From IMG/VR virus record IMGVR_UViG_3300021185_003351, positions 108,974 to 172,973 of that record: a stretch of 64,000 bases of DNA; one strand, written 5' to 3'. Both the position numbers and the translations under genes were made by a program. Position 1 is the stretch's first letter; each line of letters opens with the position of its first letter. The notes under the pieces were generated by a model. It was not told the DNA's origin. It worked only from the letters and a program-made list of their open reading frames with translations, and searched no databases. Below, in pieces: positions 2,108 through 51,330 of the stretch. Source of the DNA: a virus.

Positions 2108-4627
2108 ATGTATCAAAATATAGCATATCATAAGAAAACTGGCACAATGCATGTATGGGATGACGAATTAGGTCATAAAACTTTTAAGTTTACTCCATAT
2201 GGATATATTCCAGATACAAATGGAGAATATGTATCACTAAATGGCACTAAATTATCAAAGACTCCAGGCAATCATAGAGATAATTCAGATGCATATGAAT
2301 CTGATTTAAATGAAGAGGTTAGAACATTAATAGACTTATATTATGAGTCTGATTTAGTATCCACTGGTCATTCCGACTTCTTTTTTGATATTGAAACAGC
2401 AAAAGATGCAGATGGATATTCTACTCCAGAAGATGTTAGAACCGAAATAACATCAATAGCATATTATGACAAAGTTGGCAAAGATAGGAGAGTATTAGTA
2501 TTGGATAAAGCAAACAGATTATCTGATGACATTATATACGGTGATAACTATACTGTTGAGGTATTTGATAATGAAGCAAATTTGCTAATTAAATTTATTA
2601 ACTATTTTTCAGAAATACAACCTACTGTTATAACTGGCTGGAATACTGATGGGTATGATATTCCATATCTTATTAATAGAATTAAAAAAGTATTAGGTCC
2701 TAAGTCTGCCAATAAATTATCTCCAGCTGGAATTGTAGAATGGAATAAACATCGTGAAAGATATAAAATATTTGGAGTTTCTAGTTTAGATTATATTAAA
2801 TTATATAAAAACTTCACATATACAGAACTTCCTAATTATAGATTAGATACAGTAGGTAAAACAGAGTTAGGTAAAGGTAAAATTGAATATGATGGTGACT
2901 TAGATGATTTATTTGTTTCAGACATTAACAAGTTCATAGAATATAATATGACTGATGTTGATCTTGTATATGAGTTGGATGAAAAATTACAATTAATCAA
3001 CTTAGCAAGAACTATATGCCATAAAGGACATGTTCCATATGAAGATGTTTATTACGCATCTAAATATCTTGATGGTGCAGCTATTGTAGATTTAAAAAGA
3101 AACGGATTAGTAGCTCCAAATAAACAATTTAGATTTGTTGAAGATGAAGAGCAGAATAAATTAGCCGGTGCATATGTTATGCCTCCTATACCAGGCCTAT
3201 ATAAATGGATATACGATTTAGATTTAACATCTCTATATCCATCCATCATAATGAGCCTTAATATATCTCCAGAAACTAAAATAGGTGTTATTCCAAATTG
3301 GAAACAAGAATCATTGCTAAGTAAAGAGCCTGTTAGTGTAGTATGTAACGGCCAGACTATTCCAGATATTAAACAATGGCTAATTGATAATAAATTTACT
3401 GTTGCAAGTAATGGAGTAGTATATGATACTAGAAGTAAAGGATTCTTACCAAAGATATTAGAAAAATGGTTTGATGAACGTGTTAAATTTAAAAATGAAC
3501 GAGATAATCATGAAGTAGGAAGTGATAAGTATAAATTTTATGATGCAATGCAATTAACACAAAAAGTATTGTTAAATTCATTTTATGGAGTATTAGGATT
3601 AAAGACATTTAGATTTCATGATTTAGATAACGCAGGAGCTATCACAGCAACTGGCCAAAGTGTTATTAAATTTTCTGCAAAAGTTATTAATGGGTACTAT
3701 AAGAAAGAAGTTGGTAAAGATTATTTTATTAATGCTAATGGCAATAAAGCAGAATTTTCATTCTATACAGATACAGATTCAACATTTGTATCTAGTTTAC
3801 CTTTAATAGAAAAAAGATATCCTGGATTTGATGAATCTGATGAAAAGTTTATGATTGAAAAAACAAATGAAATAGCATCTGAAATACAATCGCATGTAAA
3901 TAAAATGTATGATCAATATGCAGTTCATTTTCATAATACATTTGATCATAGATGGCAAATTAAACAAGAATATGTTGCTAAGTCTGGTCTGTGGATAGCA
4001 AAAAAGAGATATGCTCAGTGGGTAATATTTAAAGAAGGTAAACCTACGGATAAAATGGATATAAAAGGATTAGACGTAGTCAGATCATCTTTCCCTACTG
4101 AATTTAAAACTATAATGAAAGAAACATTATGGTATATACTCAAAGAAAAGTCAAAGAATGCCACAACTAACTTAATAATGGATTTCAAAGACAAAATACA
4201 AGATTCTCCAATATTGGATGTCATGAAGAATACAGGTGTTAAAAATATCACAAAGTATACTAAAGGAAGAAAAACATTATCTGGATATCCATTAGGAACC
4301 CCAGTACATGTTAAATCTTCAATAAATTACAATGATATGCTTAAACATTTAGGTATAAATAAAAATGCAAAAAACTTTGCAGATATACAAAATGGAGATA
4401 AGATTAAATGGGCGTATCTTAAAACAAATCAAATGGGGTTTGATACCATTGCACTTAGAGGTTATGAAGATCCAACCCAAATAACAGAATTTGTTGAAAA
4501 ATTTATTGATAGAAATAAAATATTTGACAGAGAGATACGTGGAAAGTTAGATGACTTTTACGCATCAATGAATTGGGATAAACTTCCTGAAAATAATAAT
4601 ATGAATAAGTTCTTTTCATTTGGATAA
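2108..4627 (+). CDS. polB: DNA polymerase, family B, with 3'-5' exonuclease
   Basis: ExoI FDIET, ExoII GWNTDGYDIPY, ExoIII YNMTD; Pol DLTSLYPS, KVLLNSFYG, YTDTDS, KKRYA. Confidence 0.97.
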   Translation: MYQNIAYHKKTGTMHVWDDELGHKTFKFTPYGYIPDTNGEYVSLNGTKLSKTPGNHRDNSDAYESDLNEEVRTLIDLYYESDLVSTGHSDFFFDIETAKDADGYSTPEDVRTEITSIAYYDKVGKDRRVLVLDKANRLSDDIIYGDNYTVEVFDNEANLLIKFINYFSEIQPTVITGWNTDGYDIPYLINRIKKVLGPKSANKLSPAGIVEWNKHRERYKIFGVSSLDYIKLYKNFTYTELPNYRLDTVGKTELGKGKIEYDGDLDDLFVSDINKFIEYNMTDVDLVYELDEKLQLINLARTICHKGHVPYEDVYYASKYLDGAAIVDLKRNGLVAPNKQFRFVEDEEQNKLAGAYVMPPIPGLYKWIYDLDLTSLYPSIIMSLNISPETKIGVIPNWKQESLLSKEPVSVVCNGQTIPDIKQWLIDNKFTVASNGVVYDTRSKGFLPKILEKWFDERVKFKNERDNHEVGSDKYKFYDAMQLTQKVLLNSFYGVLGLKTFRFHDLDNAGAITATGQSVIKFSAKVINGYYKKEVGKDYFINANGNKAEFSFYTDTDSTFVSSLPLIEKRYPGFDESDEKFMIEKTNEIASEIQSHVNKMYDQYAVHFHNTFDHRWQIKQEYVAKSGLWIAKKRYAQWVIFKEGKPTDKMDIKGLDVVRSSFPTEFKTIMKETLWYILKEKSKNATTNLIMDFKDKIQDSPILDVMKNTGVKNITKYTKGRKTLSGYPLGTPVHVKSSINYNDMLKHLGINKNAKNFADIQNGDKIKWAYLKTNQMGFDTIALRGYEDPTQITEFVEKFIDRNKIFDREIRGKLDDFYASMNWDKLPENNNMNKFFSFG

Positions 4628-4648
4628 TTCAATAAAATTAATTATAAT
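4620..4648 (+). promoter_or_regulatory. Class M promoter TTGGAT-N17-TATAAT driving the modification/clamp operon
   Basis: Motif match with 17-nt spacer, 11 nt before ATG 4660. Confidence 0.7.
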
Positions 4649-4659
4649 AAAGAAAAAAT

Positions 4660-5112
4660 ATGTACGGTAAGCATCAATGGAAAGGTAGAGAAGTAGAAGG
4701 TCGTTATTCAGATCTTATGACTTTCTTCGTAAGAGACTTAAATCATAATATTAAAAAAACTTATGGTTTAGAAGTAGAAAATTTTAATGAATATCCTCAT
4801 TATTATTTTACAATTGAATTCATGAAAAAGTCTATGAAAGACGAAAAATATTTGGAAAGTATTAGACGTATATTAGATGAATCAAATTGTGCTGTAACTA
4901 TAGAAGCTACTAAAGACACTTTAGACACAATTAAACCAGACTTATTTAATAGATGTCATATTATATATAGAATTTCAGATCCTTATTTAGAAATGCTTAA
5001 AGACACTGACACATTATCAATCGATGCAGGTTGGTATAGAGTTCATCAAGTAACTAAATGTAATATGATGGAAATTCAACCAGATAACTATAAATTTGAC
5101 GAAGAAATATGA
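4660..5112 (+). CDS. Hypothetical protein, first gene of the DNA-modification operon
   Basis: 150 aa ORF overlapping the next gene (ATGA). Confidence 0.75.
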   Translation: MYGKHQWKGREVEGRYSDLMTFFVRDLNHNIKKTYGLEVENFNEYPHYYFTIEFMKKSMKDEKYLESIRRILDESNCAVTIEATKDTLDTIKPDLFNRCHIIYRISDPYLEMLKDTDTLSIDAGWYRVHQVTKCNMMEIQPDNYKFDEEI

Positions 5113-5456
5113 AATATTCAGTAGTTGTATCATTTAGCGTAGAAGGATTTCATTGTTGGCCAGAAGCTAAAGAAATTTTCCCGGAAGTTGGATTTTTATC
5201 TGACAGACATAGGCATATGTTTGGATTCCGTTGCTATGCAAAAGTAACACATACAGATAGAGATGAAGAATTTATTTTAATGCAAAGAAAATTAAAAAAA
5301 CAACTAAGAACTAATTTTGGTGGTAATATATTAGAATTTGGTAGAATGAGTTGTGAAGATATAGGCGCTTGGATTTTAGAACAAAATAATAATTTGTATA
5401 AAGTAGAAGTTTGGGAAGATTGGGAAAACGGAGCAATAGTAGAATTAGGTTATTAA
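5109..5456 (+). CDS. QueD/6-pyruvoyl-tetrahydropterin synthase-like T-fold protein
   Basis: GFHCW, HRHMF (HxH metal site), SCE and EVWEDWENGA motifs; size fits a T-fold. Confidence 0.7.
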   Translation: MKYSVVVSFSVEGFHCWPEAKEIFPEVGFLSDRHRHMFGFRCYAKVTHTDRDEEFILMQRKLKKQLRTNFGGNILEFGRMSCEDIGAWILEQNNNLYKVEVWEDWENGAIVELGY

Positions 5457-5457
5457 T

Positions 5458-6645
5458 ATGAAAAAAGTATTTTATTTTGGTTTAGAGCCTTTAAAGGCTA
5501 GATATACATATCAGTTATCTAAAGAATGGATGCCGGCAACATTCCAGCCATATGTTGATGCAGGTAAAATTGAATATATTGATGTAGAAGGAGAATTTGA
5601 TCCAGATCAACAAATTAAAATTGGAGCTGTATTAGATGCAGTAGGTAGAGGTAAGTTTGCTATGAGTCAATGTAGCAACTTTTTAGATATGATGAATCGA
5701 GATGAGGTTAGAGACGGAGATGTTATATTTTTACAAGACTATTGGCATCCAGGTATCGGATCTATTTTGTATGCAGCTGATTTATATGGTATTAAATTGG
5801 AAATATATGCAATGTTACATGCTCAAAGTGTAGATGAATATGATTTTACATATCCTATGAGAACATGGATGCGAGGTTTTGAATTAGGTTTAGACAAAAG
5901 AATGACAGGTATATTTGTAGGATCTAGTATTCATAAAGAACAACTACGAGTAGCTGGATTTGAATCTCCAATACATGTTGTTTCATTACCAATTCATAAA
6001 CAAGCTACATTAGACAAATTGCCTAGTTATAACTCCGGTGCAGAAAGAAAACCATTTGTTGTATACTCTAGCAGATTAGACAAAGAGAAAAATCCATTTT
6101 TCATGATGGAAGTAGCAACAGAATTTCTACAAGAATATACAGATTGGGAATGGCACATAACTACCTCAGGCAAAGAGTTTAGATCAATGTTACCAGGCGT
6201 TATTGATAAATTAAGATCATTAGCAAAACAAGAGCCTAGATTTAAATTATTAGAAGGATTAACAAAAGAAGAATATTATACAGAGTTATCTACTTGCAGT
6301 ATACAGTTTAATTCAGCTTTACAAGATTATGTATCATGGACTGTAATTGAAGCTACTGCTTTTGGAGCAGATATTGTATATCCTAATTTTAGATCATTTC
6401 CAGAATTTATTGACAGTAAAAGAATGTATAAACCATTTAATGTACAATCTGCATTAGATACATTTAGTGATGTAATGCTGTTTCCTAATAGACACAATGA
6501 AATAGTAGATATATCTGATCTAGGTAGACAAATGGAAGGATACATTGTAGCAAATGGTATTAATCAAGAAATTAATGTTTGGCATGAAGCCGAATATTGT
6601 AAAATTTTATTAAATAAAAAAGAGGAAAAACATGAAAATAGATAA
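5458..6645 (+). CDS. GT-B fold glycosyltransferase (candidate DNA-base glycosyltransferase)
   Basis: SSRLDKEKNP and C-terminal QDYVSWTVIEATAFGADIVYP GT-B signature; lies between the QueD-like and DpdA-like genes. Confidence 0.8.
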   Translation: MKKVFYFGLEPLKARYTYQLSKEWMPATFQPYVDAGKIEYIDVEGEFDPDQQIKIGAVLDAVGRGKFAMSQCSNFLDMMNRDEVRDGDVIFLQDYWHPGIGSILYAADLYGIKLEIYAMLHAQSVDEYDFTYPMRTWMRGFELGLDKRMTGIFVGSSIHKEQLRVAGFESPIHVVSLPIHKQATLDKLPSYNSGAERKPFVVYSSRLDKEKNPFFMMEVATEFLQEYTDWEWHITTSGKEFRSMLPGVIDKLRSLAKQEPRFKLLEGLTKEEYYTELSTCSIQFNSALQDYVSWTVIEATAFGADIVYPNFRSFPEFIDSKRMYKPFNVQSALDTFSDVMLFPNRHNEIVDISDLGRQMEGYIVANGINQEINVWHEAEYCKILLNKKEEKHENR

Positions 6646-6811
6646 ACAAGGTTTAGAAGAAATTAGAAGTACTATTGAAACTCCCTTTAAAGCTTTAGCA
6701 GAACAGCTAAGTGATAAAGGATGTTTAGATAAACAATCTGCAGAAATAGTAACATTTATATTTTCGAAAATTGAAACTCTCGGAGATTCATCATGGGAAG
6801 TAATTGATTAA
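6632..6811 (+). CDS. Small hypothetical protein (59 aa, MKIDKQGLEEIRS...), not in the ORF track
   Basis: Fills the gap exactly; its TAA overlaps the next ATG. Confidence 0.65.
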   Translation: MKIDKQGLEEIRSTIETPFKALAEQLSDKGCLDKQSAEIVTFIFSKIETLGDSSWEVID

Positions 6812-8061
6812 TGGATAAAAATTTTATATATTATCCATCGTTATCAGCTGGTAGTATGGTGTCTGCATTCAAAAAGAATACAAAATTTGAGGATGGAACT
6901 ACAACAAGATTCTTTTCAAAAGAGTATCCTGCAGAATGGAGACATCCATATTTCTTAATCACTGCTGGACATCATTTCAAAAAGATGGATTTTCGTGATC
7001 AGTTAGGTTTAGATGATGAGGTATTAGTATTCGGAGATTCAGGCGGATTCCAAATAGCAACAGGAGCTTTAAAGTGGGACGGTACTATTCGTGAAAGAAT
7101 ATTTGAATGGTTAGAACATAATTCAGATGTAGCAGCAAATTTAGATATTCCACCAAGAGCAAAATATGAAAATAGATTTGCCGAATCCATGGATATTAGT
7201 TTTGATAATTTTAAATATTTTGAATCTAAACAAACTGGAAAAACTGATTTCTTAAATGTTATACAAGGAACATATACAGAAGAATATGAAGAATGGTATC
7301 ATAAGTTTAAGGATTTTGCATTTAATGGTTGGTGTATCGGAGGCCCTAAGAAATTAGTAGATTTCATGTATGTTATTGCTTTAATGTTAAAGGAACGAGA
7401 ATTTGAAAAGAATCATGTAAAGTATATACATTTACTAGGAATATCAAAAATATCAGACTTTTTTATATTAGCAACATTACAAAAGTTAATTAACAAATTA
7501 ACTGATAACAGAGTATTATTCTCAACAGATTCTAGTTCACCAGGACAATATCCAGTATTTGGAACATATTTACATTCTGGGAATTATAAAACTCAAACAT
7601 TTACAGAATTATACTTTCCAAAAAATAATGAATATAGAAGAAAATCTCATGCTAATAGATCTAATAAAACAGTAGCCATTGACACTACTAAACACGTGCC
7701 ATGTAGTTTAGGCTGCCCTGCTTGTAATGATTTTACATATGATTATTTAGGAGGCCAGACAGCAACTGGGTTAGATAGATATAGCCAAGAAGGTATGCCT
7801 AGAATGGTTATACATAATACTCATTTATATGTCGACATTGCAAAAGATGTAAGCAAACTAGTAAATAATCATGTTGAATTGTTAGAAACAGCAATTCCAA
7901 AACCATTATACGATGTTATATTATCATTACACGATATGTTTGCCGATCCAGACAATGCAATGAGAGTATATGCGACTTATAAAAAAACATACAAAAAGTT
8001 TGGTGGTGATAGTATATCAACTACTGACGCAAATCAATTCAATAAATTCTTTAAATTTTAA
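6811..8061 (+). CDS. dpdA: DpdA/TGT-like 7-deazaguanine transglycosylase
   Basis: DSGGFQ, LDIPP, VIQG, GWCIGG, HLLG, DSSS, CxxxCxxC...H Zn site typical of the TGT superfamily. Confidence 0.82.
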   Translation: MDKNFIYYPSLSAGSMVSAFKKNTKFEDGTTTRFFSKEYPAEWRHPYFLITAGHHFKKMDFRDQLGLDDEVLVFGDSGGFQIATGALKWDGTIRERIFEWLEHNSDVAANLDIPPRAKYENRFAESMDISFDNFKYFESKQTGKTDFLNVIQGTYTEEYEEWYHKFKDFAFNGWCIGGPKKLVDFMYVIALMLKEREFEKNHVKYIHLLGISKISDFFILATLQKLINKLTDNRVLFSTDSSSPGQYPVFGTYLHSGNYKTQTFTELYFPKNNEYRRKSHANRSNKTVAIDTTKHVPCSLGCPACNDFTYDYLGGQTATGLDRYSQEGMPRMVIHNTHLYVDIAKDVSKLVNNHVELLETAIPKPLYDVILSLHDMFADPDNAMRVYATYKKTYKKFGGDSISTTDANQFNKFFKF

Positions 8062-8073
8062 AAATAAAAGCAA

Positions 8074-8781
8074 ATGGAAAAAAGTAAATTACAATCGTTT
8101 ATTAACAGATATTATCTAGCAGGAAATTGCGAAGCTGTAACTGTTAAAGCAAATGGTCAGTCTGTTAATTGTGAATTAATAGATGTTGATCAAACAGTAG
8201 TCGGAAAAATAAAATGGAAAACAGATCCATTTATGTCTGGCGAATTAGGTATTAATCATACAGGTGGATTAACAAAAATGTTATCCGCAGTAGGTGAAAA
8301 TATCGATATCAATGTACAAGAGTCTGCAGGTAAGAATTATGCTATGAAGATCAAAGAAGGAAGTACCACAATGACTTTCATGTTAGCTGATACTTCTGTT
8401 ATACCAGCAGTTCCTGCAATTAACGCAGAACCAGAATATAATGTTACAATTGATATTGATGAATTATTTGTTAATAAATTTATAAAAGCAAAAAATGCAT
8501 TACCAGACGCAAAGAATTTTGCAGTACAAGTACAAAACGGTAAAATAAAGTTTATTATTAATTATACAACTATTAATTCAGACAATGTTACATTTGAAAT
8601 AGATGGTGGTACAGAAGCAATGGAACCAATTTGTTTCTCTGCAGATAAACTAAAAGAAGTATTAACTGCAAATAAAGGAGATAAAGGTACAATGCATTTT
8701 TCATCTAAAGGATTAGCTAGAATAGATTTTACAGGTCCTGACTTTGATTCAAATTATTGGTTAGTTCAATTACAAAATTAA
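8074..8781 (+). CDS. Sliding clamp (gp45/PCNA-like processivity factor)
   Basis: 235 aa alpha/beta protein next to clamp-loader genes; C-terminal NYWLV pattern. Confidence 0.7.
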   Translation: MEKSKLQSFINRYYLAGNCEAVTVKANGQSVNCELIDVDQTVVGKIKWKTDPFMSGELGINHTGGLTKMLSAVGENIDINVQESAGKNYAMKIKEGSTTMTFMLADTSVIPAVPAINAEPEYNVTIDIDELFVNKFIKAKNALPDAKNFAVQVQNGKIKFIINYTTINSDNVTFEIDGGTEAMEPICFSADKLKEVLTANKGDKGTMHFSSKGLARIDFTGPDFDSNYWLVQLQN

Positions 8782-13886: not shown

Positions 13887-15377
13887 ATGGAGTTACCAAA
13901 GTTAAAAAAAATAGACTCAAACAAACAAAAAAAGAAAAAGATATTATTACTAGCTGATGATTTAAGATTACCATCAGGCATAGGAACAATATCAAAAGAA
14001 ATTGTGTTGAACACAGTACGCCAATATGATTGGGTACAAATTGGAGCAGCAATGAATCATCCAGATGCTGGTAAAATGTTCGACGTTTCAAAAGACGTAG
14101 CAAAAGAATCTGGAATAGAAGATGCAGTTGTTAAAATTATTCCATCAAATGGATATGGTGATAGAAACTTATTATTTGCTGTATTACATCAAGAGAAACC
14201 AGATGCTATATTTCATTTCACAGATCCTAGATATTGGGAATGGTTATATGCTATTGAACATGAAATAAAAACAACATTTAATATTCCAATCATATATTAT
14301 TCAATTTGGGACGATCTACCATATCCAATGTGGAATGCGCCCTTTTATGCGAGCTGTGACCTAATAATGGGAATTTCTAAGCAATCTGATAATATACATC
14401 GAGAAGTGTTGTTACAGAACGATTATGGGGTGTATGACTTTGATGCAGAAGAAAATAAAGAAGATCCTGAATTAGAGTGGGATGAAGTTGTAACAGGATA
14501 TGTTCCACACGGATTAAATCACAACGCTTACAAGACATTATTAGAGTCTGATGAGTTATATGAAAGATTCTATACTGATATAAAAGTGAAAAATGATGTC
14601 GACTTTGTTGTATTTTGGAATAATAGGAATATTAGAAGAAAACAGCCAGGCGATGTTGTACTAGCTTTCCAGCATTTCAGAAACATGTTACCAAAAGATA
14701 AAAAAGATCGAGTAGCTTTATTAATGCATACTCAACCGTCTGATTCAAACGGTACAGATATAAGAGCTGTTTGGAAAAACATAGCACCAGAATGTAAAGT
14801 TATATTTTCTGAAAAGAAATTAACATTACAAGAATTAAATGCAATGTATAATATTTCAGATGTTGTATTAAATATTGCTTCAAACGAAGGATGGGGGTTA
14901 AGTAGCACAGAAGCATTATTATCAGGTACTCCAATTGTTAATAATGTAACTGGAGGGTTACAAGATCAATGTAGATTTGAAGATGAAAATGGAGAATGGA
15001 TTACATTTGACGGTACATTCTCGACAAATCATAAAGGAAGATATAAAAAACATGGAAAGTGGGTAAGACCAGTATTTCCTTCAAATAGATCATGCCAAGG
15101 ATCGCCAGTCACTCCTTATATATTTGACGATCGTGCACAATTCGAGGATGTAGGAGATGCATTATTATATTGGTGGAATATGCCAAAAGAACAACGAGAA
15201 GAATGTGGAGAAGCTGGAAGAGAGTTTTGTTTAAATCATGGATTAACAGCAAAACAAATGGGTGACAAAATGATAGAAATAATGGATTTCTTATTTAAAT
15301 ATCCAAAAAAATCTAGGCCTAAATATACATTAAGAAAAGTAACAAATAAACAATATAAAGAAATGGGAATAGTATGA
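13887..15377 (+). CDS. GT4/GT-B glycosyltransferase
   Basis: NRNIRRKQP and NEGWGLSSTEALLSGTPIV motifs. Confidence 0.9.
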   Translation: MELPKLKKIDSNKQKKKKILLLADDLRLPSGIGTISKEIVLNTVRQYDWVQIGAAMNHPDAGKMFDVSKDVAKESGIEDAVVKIIPSNGYGDRNLLFAVLHQEKPDAIFHFTDPRYWEWLYAIEHEIKTTFNIPIIYYSIWDDLPYPMWNAPFYASCDLIMGISKQSDNIHREVLLQNDYGVYDFDAEENKEDPELEWDEVVTGYVPHGLNHNAYKTLLESDELYERFYTDIKVKNDVDFVVFWNNRNIRRKQPGDVVLAFQHFRNMLPKDKKDRVALLMHTQPSDSNGTDIRAVWKNIAPECKVIFSEKKLTLQELNAMYNISDVVLNIASNEGWGLSSTEALLSGTPIVNNVTGGLQDQCRFEDENGEWITFDGTFSTNHKGRYKKHGKWVRPVFPSNRSCQGSPVTPYIFDDRAQFEDVGDALLYWWNMPKEQREECGEAGREFCLNHGLTAKQMGDKMIEIMDFLFKYPKKSRPKYTLRKVTNKQYKEMGIV

Positions 15378-16663
15378 GAAAATGTGTAATATCAAGTCCA
15401 TTAGCAACACAATCGGGATATGGACACCATGCAAGAGAAGTTATAGAAAATATAATTGAACAACGAGGAAAAGAATGGAATATTAAATTGTTATCAATGC
15501 CATGGGGCAATACACCATTAACATTTCCAATATCAAACGAAATGCGAACTAGAGTAGTTCCATTACCATTAACAGAACAACCAGATATATGGATACAAAT
15601 AACAATCCCAAATGAATTTCAACCGGTTGGAAAATTTAATATCGGAGTAACTGCAGTAACCGAAGGCGATATATGTTCAAAAGAATGGATTGATTCTATT
15701 AATAAAATGCAAGTTATCATAGTTCCATCTGAATTTACTAAATCAGTATTAACAAAAACTGCAGAAAAACATAATATTGCAATTTCGACAGAAATACATG
15801 TTATATCAGAATATTTTAATAAAGATATATACAATAAAAATAATAGAGCTGAATCAATTGATTTGAGTGAAGTACATGAATCATTTTGTTATTTGTTTGT
15901 AGGACATTGGCTTCAGGGATCATTAGGAGAAGATAGAAAAAATATAACTGGATTACTTCACAATTTTTTAGAAACATTTAAAAACAAAGAAAAAACTCCA
16001 GGATTAATATTAAAAACTAGTTCTGCAACATACTCTGTTACTGACAGAAGTAAAATGGAACAATATATTAATTCAATTCGTGACTTATTTCCTAAAACTG
16101 CTAAACTTCCAAATATATATTTATTACATGGAGATTTATCTGACAATGAAATGAATTCATTATATAATCATTCCAAAGTTAAAGCAATGGTTTCATATAC
16201 TAAAGGAGAAGGATTTGGAAGACCTTTATTAGAATTTGCATCTACAGGAAAACCTATTATAGCACCACACTATTCAGGCCAAGCAGATTTCTTAAAGAAA
16301 GAGCATATAGTTGCATTAGCAGGAGGATTAACAGAAGTACATCCATCGGCTAGAAATCAATGGATTATTGAAGGATCTAAATGGTTTACTCCCGATTATG
16401 CATATTCAAAAAAAGCATTAAAAGAAGTACATAAACATTACAGCAAATTTATTCCTGGAGCTAGAGAGCAAAAGAAATTTGTTACAGAAAATTTTACGAA
16501 AATTGCAATTGCTCCTAGTTATACAAAGTTAATAGAATTAATTGAAAGTAGAGTAGTAGAAGGTCCTAGTATGCAGCAATTAAAATTGCCACAGCTTAAT
16601 AAACCAAATCTTAAAACAGTTGAACTTCCTAAGTTAAAATTACCTAAACTAAATAAAGTATGA
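15374..16663 (+). CDS. GT4/GT-B glycosyltransferase
   Basis: SGYG, DRKNI and GEGFGRPLLEFASTGKPII motifs. Confidence 0.9.
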   Translation: MRKCVISSPLATQSGYGHHAREVIENIIEQRGKEWNIKLLSMPWGNTPLTFPISNEMRTRVVPLPLTEQPDIWIQITIPNEFQPVGKFNIGVTAVTEGDICSKEWIDSINKMQVIIVPSEFTKSVLTKTAEKHNIAISTEIHVISEYFNKDIYNKNNRAESIDLSEVHESFCYLFVGHWLQGSLGEDRKNITGLLHNFLETFKNKEKTPGLILKTSSATYSVTDRSKMEQYINSIRDLFPKTAKLPNIYLLHGDLSDNEMNSLYNHSKVKAMVSYTKGEGFGRPLLEFASTGKPIIAPHYSGQADFLKKEHIVALAGGLTEVHPSARNQWIIEGSKWFTPDYAYSKKALKEVHKHYSKFIPGAREQKKFVTENFTKIAIAPSYTKLIELIESRVVEGPSMQQLKLPQLNKPNLKTVELPKLKLPKLNKV

Positions 16664-17292
16664 AAATAGGATATTTCATAACAGCCTGTAATGAATATGA
16701 AGAGTTAAAAAAACTTTTAATATTGTTACGAACTAATATAGACAAAAATGACTGTATTGGTGTTTTATTAGATGAAAAAAACGTGACAGATGAAGTTGAT
16801 TCATTATGCAATCAATTTTTAGTTCCAAATAATGAGTCTTTTCGGGTAATATACAGTAACTTAGACAATGACTTTGCATCATTTAAAAACTTAGGATATC
16901 ATTTATTTGATGATTGTGATTGGATTTTTAATATAGATGCTGATGAATTACCATCTTCAATTTTAATACAAAATATTAAACAAGTTATAAATTTAAATCC
17001 AGAAACAGAATTAATATATGTTCCAAGAATAAATACAGTTGAAGGATTGACACAAGATCATATTAATAAATGGAGATGGCAAGTAAACGATGAAGGATGG
17101 GTGAATTGGCCAGATTACCAAGGCAGAATATATAAACGATCGCCTATGATAGAATGGAAAGGTAAAGTGCATGAGCGAATAGAAGGAATGAAAAAATATT
17201 CACATCTTCCAGCTAAAGAAGAATTTGCATTTCACCATCCTAAAACAATTGAACGACAAGAGCGTCAAAATAAATTTTATGAAAGTATATAA
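16660..17292 (+). CDS. GT2/GT-A glycosyltransferase
   Basis: ITACNE, WIFNIDADE, WPDYQGRIY, VHE. Confidence 0.88.
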   Translation: MKIGYFITACNEYEELKKLLILLRTNIDKNDCIGVLLDEKNVTDEVDSLCNQFLVPNNESFRVIYSNLDNDFASFKNLGYHLFDDCDWIFNIDADELPSSILIQNIKQVINLNPETELIYVPRINTVEGLTQDHINKWRWQVNDEGWVNWPDYQGRIYKRSPMIEWKGKVHERIEGMKKYSHLPAKEEFAFHHPKTIERQERQNKFYESI

Positions 17293-50805: not shown

Positions 50806-51330
50806 ATGAAACAACTATTAACTGAAAAAGAAATAGACATACAAAGTAAAATTATAGCAAAACAAATTAATGATAAGCATAGAGACGACAAGACTCCAGT
50901 AGTATTTGTTGGATTACTTAATGGATGTTTTATGTTTTATTCTGATTTTATAAAAAATCTTTCAATTGATATAGAATGTGATTTTATGCGAGTAAAGTCT
51001 TATATATCAAAAAAGAAACAAGGAGATGTTCAAATAACTAAAGACTTAGAGACGGCGATCAAAGGCAAACATGTATATATTGTAGATGACATATATGATA
51101 CTGGTAATACTATTAATGCTGTTATCGATTATCTGAAAGTAAAAGACCCTTCAATGATATCAATAGTAACTTTATTGAAAAGAAAAAGTTCTCCGCCATT
51201 ACTAGTACCAAATTCATTTGTAGATAATCATTACAATGTTTTTGAAATTGATGAAGAGTGGGTAATAGGTTATGGATTAGACAATGATAACGGCCATTGT
51301 AGGAATTATAGGACTATATATGAAATTTAG
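50806..51330 (+). CDS. hpt: Hypoxanthine(-guanine) phosphoribosyltransferase
   Basis: VGLLNGCFMFYSD, VKSY, YIVDDIYDTGNT PRPP loop, WVIGYGLD. Confidence 0.93.
   Translation: MKQLLTEKEIDIQSKIIAKQINDKHRDDKTPVVFVGLLNGCFMFYSDFIKNLSIDIECDFMRVKSYISKKKQGDVQITKDLETAIKGKHVYIVDDIYDTGNTINAVIDYLKVKDPSMISIVTLLKRKSSPPLLVPNSFVDNHYNVFEIDEEWVIGYGLDNDNGHCRNYRTIYEI

Follow-up and report, generated by a model that had tools for sequence, protein, structure and literature searches.

A glycosyltransferase gene linked to a probable phiST-type deazaguanine DNA-modification module in a T4-like virus and its possible role in sugar decoration of DNA

Why should a glycosyltransferase (GT) be encoded inside an operon that appears to exchange guanine in viral DNA for a deazaguanine? 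The question is raised by the final 64 kb of the 172,973-bp IMG/VR record IMGVR_UViG_3300021185_003351, the genome of a large marine phage, with a completeness of 100% according to CheckV. The window, i.e., the whole analysed stretch of 64,000 nucleotides (positions 108,974 to 172,973 of the record), has a G+C content of about 30% and carries nearly all of its genes on one strand. Among them are five consecutive open reading frames (ORFs) for a protein here called unk150, a DpdL protein, the GT, a small acidic protein and a DpdA-like protein of the tRNA-guanine transglycosylase (TGT) superfamily (Table 1). Our analysis indicates that this operon very probably belongs to a deazaguanine DNA-modification module of the type of Cellulophaga phage phiST, which is distinguished by DpdL. 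Gene linkage further suggests that a sugar is placed on the deazaguanine in DNA, a claim that we regard as evenly balanced.

The T-fold protein identifies the type of module. This 115-aa protein is a member of the published DpdL family, and decarboxylation of 7-carboxy-7-deazaguanine (CDG) is its predicted activity. It matched the founding DpdL, CGPG_00067 of phiST, with 38% identity and 97% coverage (tblastn 2e-12; blastp 2.5e-18), and also the profile phrog_17812 (4e-21). The signature LxxxHRHxF, which defines DpdL, the CDG decarboxylase proposed by Cui, Hutinet et al. (NAR 2023, PMC10516641), appears as FLSDRHRHMF at residues 29-38, with L30, H34, H36 and F38 invariant across 22 sequences, and the catalytic Cys of the QueD motif CxxxHGH is absent. 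A first-pass annotation, made from the letters of the window, had described a QueD-like T-fold protein that might be a tailoring enzyme without assignment; the paralogy to QueD stands, and the signature together with the identity to the phiST protein now supply the assignment. Within the complete genome, DpdL co-occurs with FolE, QueD, QueE and the DpdA-like protein, and without QueC.

Genes for the precursor lie just beyond the window. Whole-genome profile searches retrieved FolE (PF01227, 4e-48), a genuine QueD separate from DpdL (PF01242, 2e-16) and a QueE-like radical SAM protein (TIGR03365, 1.3e-14) at genome positions 105899-108033. These genes end 0.9 kb short of the window start (108974) and stand 5.6-7.7 kb upstream of the operon, from which QueE is separated by GroES, an unknown gene, PhoH, UvdE, a 75-aa ORF and the family-B DNA polymerase gene polB. 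QueC was absent from the entire 173-kb genome in the whole-genome search. With FolE, QueD and QueE present and QueC absent, the phage can make CDG but not preQ0. The earlier remark that folE, queE and queC are missing from the window was thus literally correct but misleading, since folE, queD and queE are found immediately outside it and only queC is lacking genome-wide. Likewise, of the two precursor sources proposed at that stage, the one elsewhere in the genome was located a few kb upstream, and the host was not borne out as the source. Directly upstream of FolE there is also a class II (B12-type) ribonucleotide reductase-like gene (genome 103538-105397; L004:5539-7398).

The 416-aa protein at the end of the operon looks, from its sequence, like a diverged relative of DpdA within the TGT superfamily, with DNA rather than tRNA as its predicted target. 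It matched the Pfam TGT model (PF01702) at 1.2e-5, with 25.0 bits against a cut-off of 26.3, and a precomputed match to the same model exists for most homologues, almost all of them, at 80% identity. Its best NCBIfam match was the archaeal TgtA (2.4e-4), at 19.7 bits versus a cut-off of 350. Two aspartates, D76 in GDSGGFQ and D240 in STDSSS, are invariant across the clade, and their motifs are common to the corresponding proteins of PA5oct, ACP17, BUCT-ZZ01 and phiST; motif and spacing suggest that they are equivalent to the TGT catalytic aspartates. A CSLGCPAC motif is also present. The protein was related to its counterparts in PA5oct (blastp 3e-19) and ACP17 (hhalign probability 87.5%, E 3.6e-6), whereas hhalign against DpdA3 of phiST gave a probability of 0.2% with a shallow profile (Neff 1.6), and no PDB match was obtained by sequence or clade profile. 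It does not group with the tRNA-modifying TGTs, as shown by the low TgtA score; its nearest relatives are proteins of phage deazaguanine clusters, and no tRNA or tmRNA genes were detected by ARAGORN in this 173-kb T4-like genome. Relatives and motifs therefore support the earlier proposal of a 7-deazaguanine module around a DpdA-like protein.

The GT was modelled with high confidence (AlphaFold2; predicted local distance difference test, pLDDT, 96.5; predicted template modelling score, pTM, 0.93). Foldseek placed the model closest to retaining GT4 enzymes, with E values of 1e-13 to 1e-10 and TM scores of 0.60-0.65 (BshA, MshA, PimA, GlgM). BshA was the top match (2.7e-13), and the small-molecule GTs LmbT and SenB were also near. 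The family profile matched GT4 structures at about 3e-4, with the donor motif RlDkEKnP aligned to RLDHNKNP, and across 77 diverse homologues R206 and K211 never vary, while E298 is kept in at least 90%. Against the Pfam model Glycos_transf_1, the protein stayed below the cut-offs (19.0 and 20.3 bits versus 26.4 and 27), and many of its homologues carry a precomputed PF00534 match. The GT4-like fold and the conserved R/K/E donor residues make it very likely, as far as a model can tell, that this is an active nucleotide-sugar transferase, and the confident GT-B model agrees with the identity given to the 395-aa protein at first pass. Clustering at 50% identity yielded 901 representatives of the family (E<=1e-3).

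What ties this enzyme to the deazaguanine genes is its genomic company. GT homologues were found in 23 of 50,697 phage records, 18 of which also encode DpdL, always within 3 kb, and the remaining five encode a DpdA-like protein at another place in the genome. Were GT and DpdL independent, the expected number of joint records would be about 0.01. The 18 records represent six unrelated lineages of cultured phages (the PA5oct group, ACP17, BUCT-ZZ01, Phosso, X1/BUDD and BCSR5). At the DNA level, the operon had no match among the 50,697 records. In viral contigs, the order polB-unk150-DpdL-GT-(59 aa)-DpdA-like-clamp was kept in every one of the approximately 135 close relatives spanning it, and the order unk150-GT-DpdA-like in approximately 190 related contigs. 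A sister clade, with a polB about 52% identical, is arranged as QueD-QueE-GroES-FolE-polB-unk150-GT-DpdA-like-clamp; here unk150 directly precedes the GT in all 54 loci with both genes and abuts it in 52. None of these 54 loci has DpdL within 10 kb, and we considered a clade devoid of DpdL, which was rejected when DpdL was found elsewhere on the one long contig (5e-33). Farther away, a distant metagenomic contig of a Mu-like siphovirus reads FolE...DpdL...GT-QueD-QueE, and short distant metagenomic contigs read DpdL-GT or GT-unk150-DpdL. The first-pass annotation had raised synteny of GT and DpdA as a check, and it holds in every related contig that covers this site as well as in several phage lineages unrelated to these.

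Exchange of the GT was also observed. In 13 relatives the GT slot holds another GT-B protein, 23-24% identical, and in the same contigs the DpdA-like protein and polB are 69-71% and 69-72% identical, respectively. The exchange of the slot while DpdA-like and polB diverge in step modestly favours an action of the GT after insertion of the base. By analogy, this variation resembles that of the sugar-adding enzymes of T-even phages. Three further loci deserve description. One relative carries a cytidylyltransferase-like gene (PF01467, 2e-11) between unk150 and GT (L135:1858-2286), a hint that the GT may have an activated donor of its own. The BUCT-ZZ01 cluster (L007, 1093-7692) contains QueE, an XGPRT-like gene, an unknown gene, QueD, FolE, a second GT (447 aa), DpdA-like, DpdL, GT and a Rv2179c-like 3'-5' exonuclease, and its two GTs suggest a two-sugar decoration. 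In Xanthomonas phage PhiXhv-15 (L149, 3654-6888), a distant GT homologue is accompanied by GlmS and a LmbE/BshB-type deacetylase, with the DpdA-like gene far off; this gene set resembles one for transfer of N-acetylglucosamine (GlcNAc) followed by deacetylation.

The first gene of the operon had been left as a protein of unknown nature; its model points instead to a QueE-like fold, from which the cysteines for an iron-sulfur cluster are missing. The unk150 family had no match in Pfam, PHROGs or NCBIfam, and 24 residues, mostly polar, are invariant among 32 relatives. With the model (pLDDT 82), QueE was the first match in two independent libraries, one of them the ESM Atlas, where a QueE cluster topped the shape search (TM 0.62). 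Foldseek against the PDB returned only non-significant rows (Rab GTPases, E >=0.05), and the ESM Atlas feature look-up gave nothing usable. In hhalign, E-V-E-G...F-F-V-R of unk150 falls on the substrate-binding Q-x-E-G...V-R of QueE with equal spacing, although not significantly. The likeness of the two proteins lies in the structure match and in the N-terminal E-G ... F-x-R spacing of the substrate-binding strand, but unk150 has 150 residues versus approximately 210-250, no radical-SAM cysteine motif and no significant sequence similarity. Specifically, neither CxxxCxxC nor Cx14CxxC nor any invariant Cys was found in 32 sequences, and the absence of the cluster cysteines makes unk150 incapable of radical chemistry. 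On the basis of the model, we tentatively suggest, at slightly under an even chance, that unk150 is derived from QueE and binds CDG or its pterin precursor without radical chemistry. Complex prediction of DpdL with unk150 scored 0.00, which speaks neither for nor against binding.

A tblastn search with unk150 against the phage records gave no match, and a hidden Markov model of the family recovered a clear homologue (8e-11) in a distant lineage, flanked there by GT and DpdL, so that unk150 is a recurrent member of the module rather than a clade-specific orphan. At another locus, L092, DpdL has a C-terminal fusion partner of 160 aa, which opens with V-E-A-E-G...L-F-V, a stretch like that in QueE and unk150 (L092:744-1754). 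This C-terminal half was tried as an unk150 homologue; it aligned in register but not significantly (E 0.07), and was set aside as a hint only. The same locus has a GT homologue split by an intein-like insert (P0360, 726 aa, L092:2315-4495), and an HNH endonuclease gene lies between P0360 and the upstream DpdL-fusion gene. In some close relatives a 172-aa ORF of no known family is found between unk150 and DpdL (L024:7486-8004), a junction that is a hot spot of accessory genes.

Table 1. Features of the window discussed in the text (positions are those of the window).
Feature	Position	Strand	Annotation
unk150 (150 aa)	4660-5112	+	Modelled as QueE-like, without iron-sulfur cysteines; proposed helper binding CDG or pterin
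DpdL (115 aa)	5109-5456	+	QueD paralogue; predicted CDG decarboxylase
GT (395 aa)	5458-6645	+	GT-B, GT4-like; proposed to put a sugar on the deazaguanine base
59-aa acidic ORF	6632-6811	+	No function assigned
DpdA-like (416 aa)	6811-8061	+	TGT superfamily transglycosylase; proposed to exchange G in DNA for deazaguanine
HGPRT-like phosphoribosyltransferase	50806-51330	+	Pfam Pribosyltran 8.9e-26; NCBIfam HGPRTase 1.1e-41, 142 bits versus cut-off 150

The layout of the operon is compact: neighbouring ORFs overlap by 4, 14 and 1 nt at the first, third and fourth junctions, respectively, and are 1 nt apart at the second. Upstream it is flanked by polB (2108-4627; Pfam 1.2e-41, phrog_262 1e-177), and downstream by a clamp-like protein (8074-8781; phrog_223 1.2e-8), a dUTPase and a clamp loader. 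The first-pass annotation had described five tightly coupled ORFs between polB and the sliding clamp. Their coordinates and common strand proved exact, and both flanks were confirmed by profile matches; overall, its observation is confirmed and its interpretation is partly supported. It had also given the operon a promoter of its own. A promoter-like TGGATA-16-TATAAT match does precede unk150 (4621-4648), but sigma-70-like matches around the operon numbered 25 versus 30.9 expected from shuffles, i.e., no excess over chance in AT-rich DNA, and a scan of the region for the Bacteroidetes -7 box was no better than chance. As the gap between polB and unk150 is only 32 nt, co-transcription with polB is equally possible. 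The 59-aa ORF is kept only in the nearest relatives (52-100% identity), had no match in other deazaguanine clusters, and is missing elsewhere, where GT and DpdA-like gene abut. Two further GT-B genes (Glycos_transf_1; 496 and about 434 aa) are found on the + strand at about 13887-16700 of the window (genome 123799 and 125091), and are probably the main glycan island from which the operon GT had been set apart.

From the gene identities, folds, motifs and linkage shown above, we propose a pathway whose enzymatic steps and their order are inferred. FolE, QueD and QueE, encoded by the phage upstream of the window, would convert GTP to CDG, as is known of these families. DpdL would remove the carboxyl group to give 7-deazaguanine, a step in which unk150 probably assists by holding CDG or the pterin precursor. 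The DpdA-like transglycosylase would then exchange guanine in replicated phage DNA for 7-deazaguanine. The presence of FolE, QueD, QueE and DpdL without QueC is the phiST pattern, on which the first three steps are modelled; the GT step is new. In this step, suggested by linkage, the GT would take a sugar from a nucleotide-sugar of the host and attach it to the deazaguanine, most likely after insertion and in the major groove, and less likely on the free base before insertion. The sugar and its attachment atom are likewise inferred, and candidates for the latter are a C-glycoside at C7 or C8, N2 as in huimycin, O6, or an ester if the base is CDG. The product, a deazaguanine with a sugar on it, would protect the DNA against nucleases, restriction enzymes among them. 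Neither type of thymidylate synthase was found in the complete genome (no match to PF00303 or PF02511), and without such a ThyA/ThyX-type enzyme there would be no hydroxymethyl-pyrimidine as an acceptor for the GT.

Taken in full, the proposal has three parts. The phage DNA would contain a glycosylated 7-deazaguanine, produced when a GT4-like enzyme modifies the base inserted by DpdA, and no purine analogue with a sugar would have been described earlier in any DNA. The protein unk150 would be a new accessory of decarboxylation or insertion. Relatives would swap the GT cassette and thereby change the sugar, in the way known for cytosine in T-even phages. We hold this combined reading tentatively, at somewhat less than an even chance. 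Several points speak against the proposed pathway. The DNA base of no GT-bearing phage is known to have been characterised chemically. 7-Deazaguanine has no hydroxyl group and hence no obvious acceptor atom, N2 attachment would fall in the minor groove, and we know of no C-glycosylation by retaining GT4 enzymes. The closest solved relatives of the GT use small molecules as substrates, not DNA. The DpdA-like protein scores below the Pfam TGT cut-off and has no detectable similarity to DpdA3 of phiST. The decarboxylase activity of DpdL is a prediction even for the founding member, and the reconstitution attempted by Cui et al. failed. Finally, linkage across phages is partly inherited, so that the independent lineages number approximately 8-10 and not hundreds.

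On the one hand, the module might be a plain system as in phiST, with 2'-deoxy-7-deazaguanosine (dDG) or its CDG counterpart (dCDG) in the DNA, and the GT might work outside DNA, on the host envelope or on a phage or host protein, being linked to the cluster by early or middle expression. DpdL clusters without the GT family found here do exist in phiST and in Vibrio phage D479, and phiST reaches full dDG replacement without a GT, which is thus unnecessary for base replacement. Moreover, the two other GT-B genes show that the genome has GTs for glycan work, and the solved structures nearest to the operon GT belong to GT4 enzymes for small molecules or glycans. However, if the GT had no part in the pathway, it would not have remained at most 3 kb from DpdL or DpdA in six architecturally different cultured lineages as well as in distant metagenomic phages, and its restriction to deazaguanine phages among the phage records would be unexpected, which leaves this explanation unlikely. 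On the other hand, the GT might act on the free base or nucleotide, and the product might either be inserted by an enlarged DpdA-like enzyme or be a soluble huimycin-like metabolite that acts on the host. This is in line with HuiG, a GT4-type enzyme that glycosylates free 7-deazaguanine, with the small-molecule GTs BshA, MshA, LmbT and SenB as nearest folds, with the size of the DpdA-like proteins of GT-bearing clusters (416-540 aa versus 259 aa in phiST), and with deoxynucleotidase (NT5C) and phosphoribosyltransferase genes beside some clusters. Nevertheless, where the GT cassette was exchanged for another with 23% identity, the DpdA-like protein had not diverged any further, although it would need to recognise the new sugar, and a soluble metabolite gives no reason for a GT gene so strictly placed beside the DNA-inserting enzyme and the replication genes. 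We give this explanation a similarly low standing, perhaps a shade higher.

Alternatively, the deazaguanine might be incorporated as a nucleotide before replication, by way of the hypoxanthine-guanine phosphoribosyltransferase (HGPRT)-like enzyme, kinases, ribonucleotide reductase and polB, and the TGT-like protein might act elsewhere, e.g., on host tRNA. The HGPRT-like enzyme is indeed phage-encoded, BUCT-ZZ01 has a related XGPRT-like gene inside its cluster, and the operon sits among replication genes. A deazaguanine nucleoside reported in CP220-infected Campylobacter cells, as cited in PMC10516641, points in the same direction. Yet all phages known to have deazaguanine DNA encode DpdA (PMC10516641), the TGT-like protein scores far under the tRNA-TGT models, and the HGPRT, 43 kb from the operon, is equally explained by salvage of the guanine freed by base exchange. 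We therefore consider such a route highly improbable. The HGPRT-like enzyme itself is a possible accessory, either salvaging released guanine or feeding a nucleotide-level route.

If the preferred reading of a sugar on a DNA-borne deazaguanine is true, a sugar on a purine analogue would constitute a new class of DNA base. To our knowledge, the known sugar decorations of DNA are all on pyrimidines (glucosyl-5-hydroxymethylcytosine, arabinosyl-5-hydroxymethylcytosine and base J), and a literature search with thin coverage of subscription journals turned up no account of a glycosylated deazaguanine in DNA. The core of FolE, QueD, QueE, DpdL and DpdA belongs to a known kind; the conserved GT and unk150 are part of no described deazaguanine pathway. 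Such a base would matter for defences based on restriction, CRISPR or DNA glycosylases, for nanopore and sequencing artefacts in the study of marine viromes, and for DNA-labelling enzymes. The family is abundant, with hundreds of marine and freshwater contigs, and is also present in the cultured phages PA5oct, ACP17 and BUCT-ZZ01. In addition, it may help to explain why reconstitution in Escherichia coli with phiST and ACP17 genes failed, after which the authors noted that further enzymes may be required (PMC10516641): the conserved partners GT and unk150 were left out of the DpdL and DpdA experiments.

Among the known systems, phiST is the closest in gene content. It encodes FolE, QueD, QueE, DpdL and DpdA3 but no QueC, and 100% of its dG is replaced by dDG (PMC10516641). 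Shared with the genome described here are FolE, QueD and QueE without QueC, the DpdL signature, an inserting enzyme of the TGT superfamily and a cluster beside a polymerase gene. In contrast, phiST lacks the GT and unk150 and has an AAA-type kinase-like gene instead, its DpdA3 is a 259-aa protein without detectable similarity to the one found here, and in our genome approximately 5.6 kb, including polB, separate the precursor genes from those for tailoring and insertion. Closer with regard to the GT are PA5oct (Wroclawvirus), Acidovorax phage ACP17 and Synechococcus phage BUCT-ZZ01, in which homologous GT, DpdL and DpdA-like genes adjoin and QueE, FolE and QueD are nearby. They differ in gene order, and a homologue of unk150 was not detected in them; BUCT-ZZ01 differs further by its second GT and XGPRT-like gene. 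The cluster genes of these three phages are annotated as hypothetical, and no role of the GT was found in the literature. In favour of the proposal, PA5oct, which has a DpdA-GT-DpdL cluster and a chemically undefined base, withstands restriction enzymes with G in their sites (PMC12191111).

A chemical precedent outside phages is HuiG, a GT4-type enzyme of the huimycin pathway of Kutzneria albida, which puts GlcNAc on a 7-deazaguanine base (PMC7439116). Like the viral GT, it is encoded beside genes of the FolE/QueD/QueE type. In contrast, huimycin is a free secondary metabolite derived from preQ0 (QueC is present), the sugar is on the 2-amino group, and no DpdA is involved; the kinship of the two enzymes is known only as membership of the common GT4 class.

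In T4, alpha- and beta-glucosyltransferases glucosylate 5-hydroxymethylcytosine in DNA. The GT described here has no sequence or Pfam match with these enzymes, there is no ThyA/ThyX hydroxymethylase in its genome, and its proposed acceptor is a purine analogue without an obvious hydroxyl. As with the T-even glucosyltransferases, however, it is a GT-B protein encoded among replication genes and would decorate a DNA base that is already modified, and in both cases the GT varies while the base-making genes remain constant.

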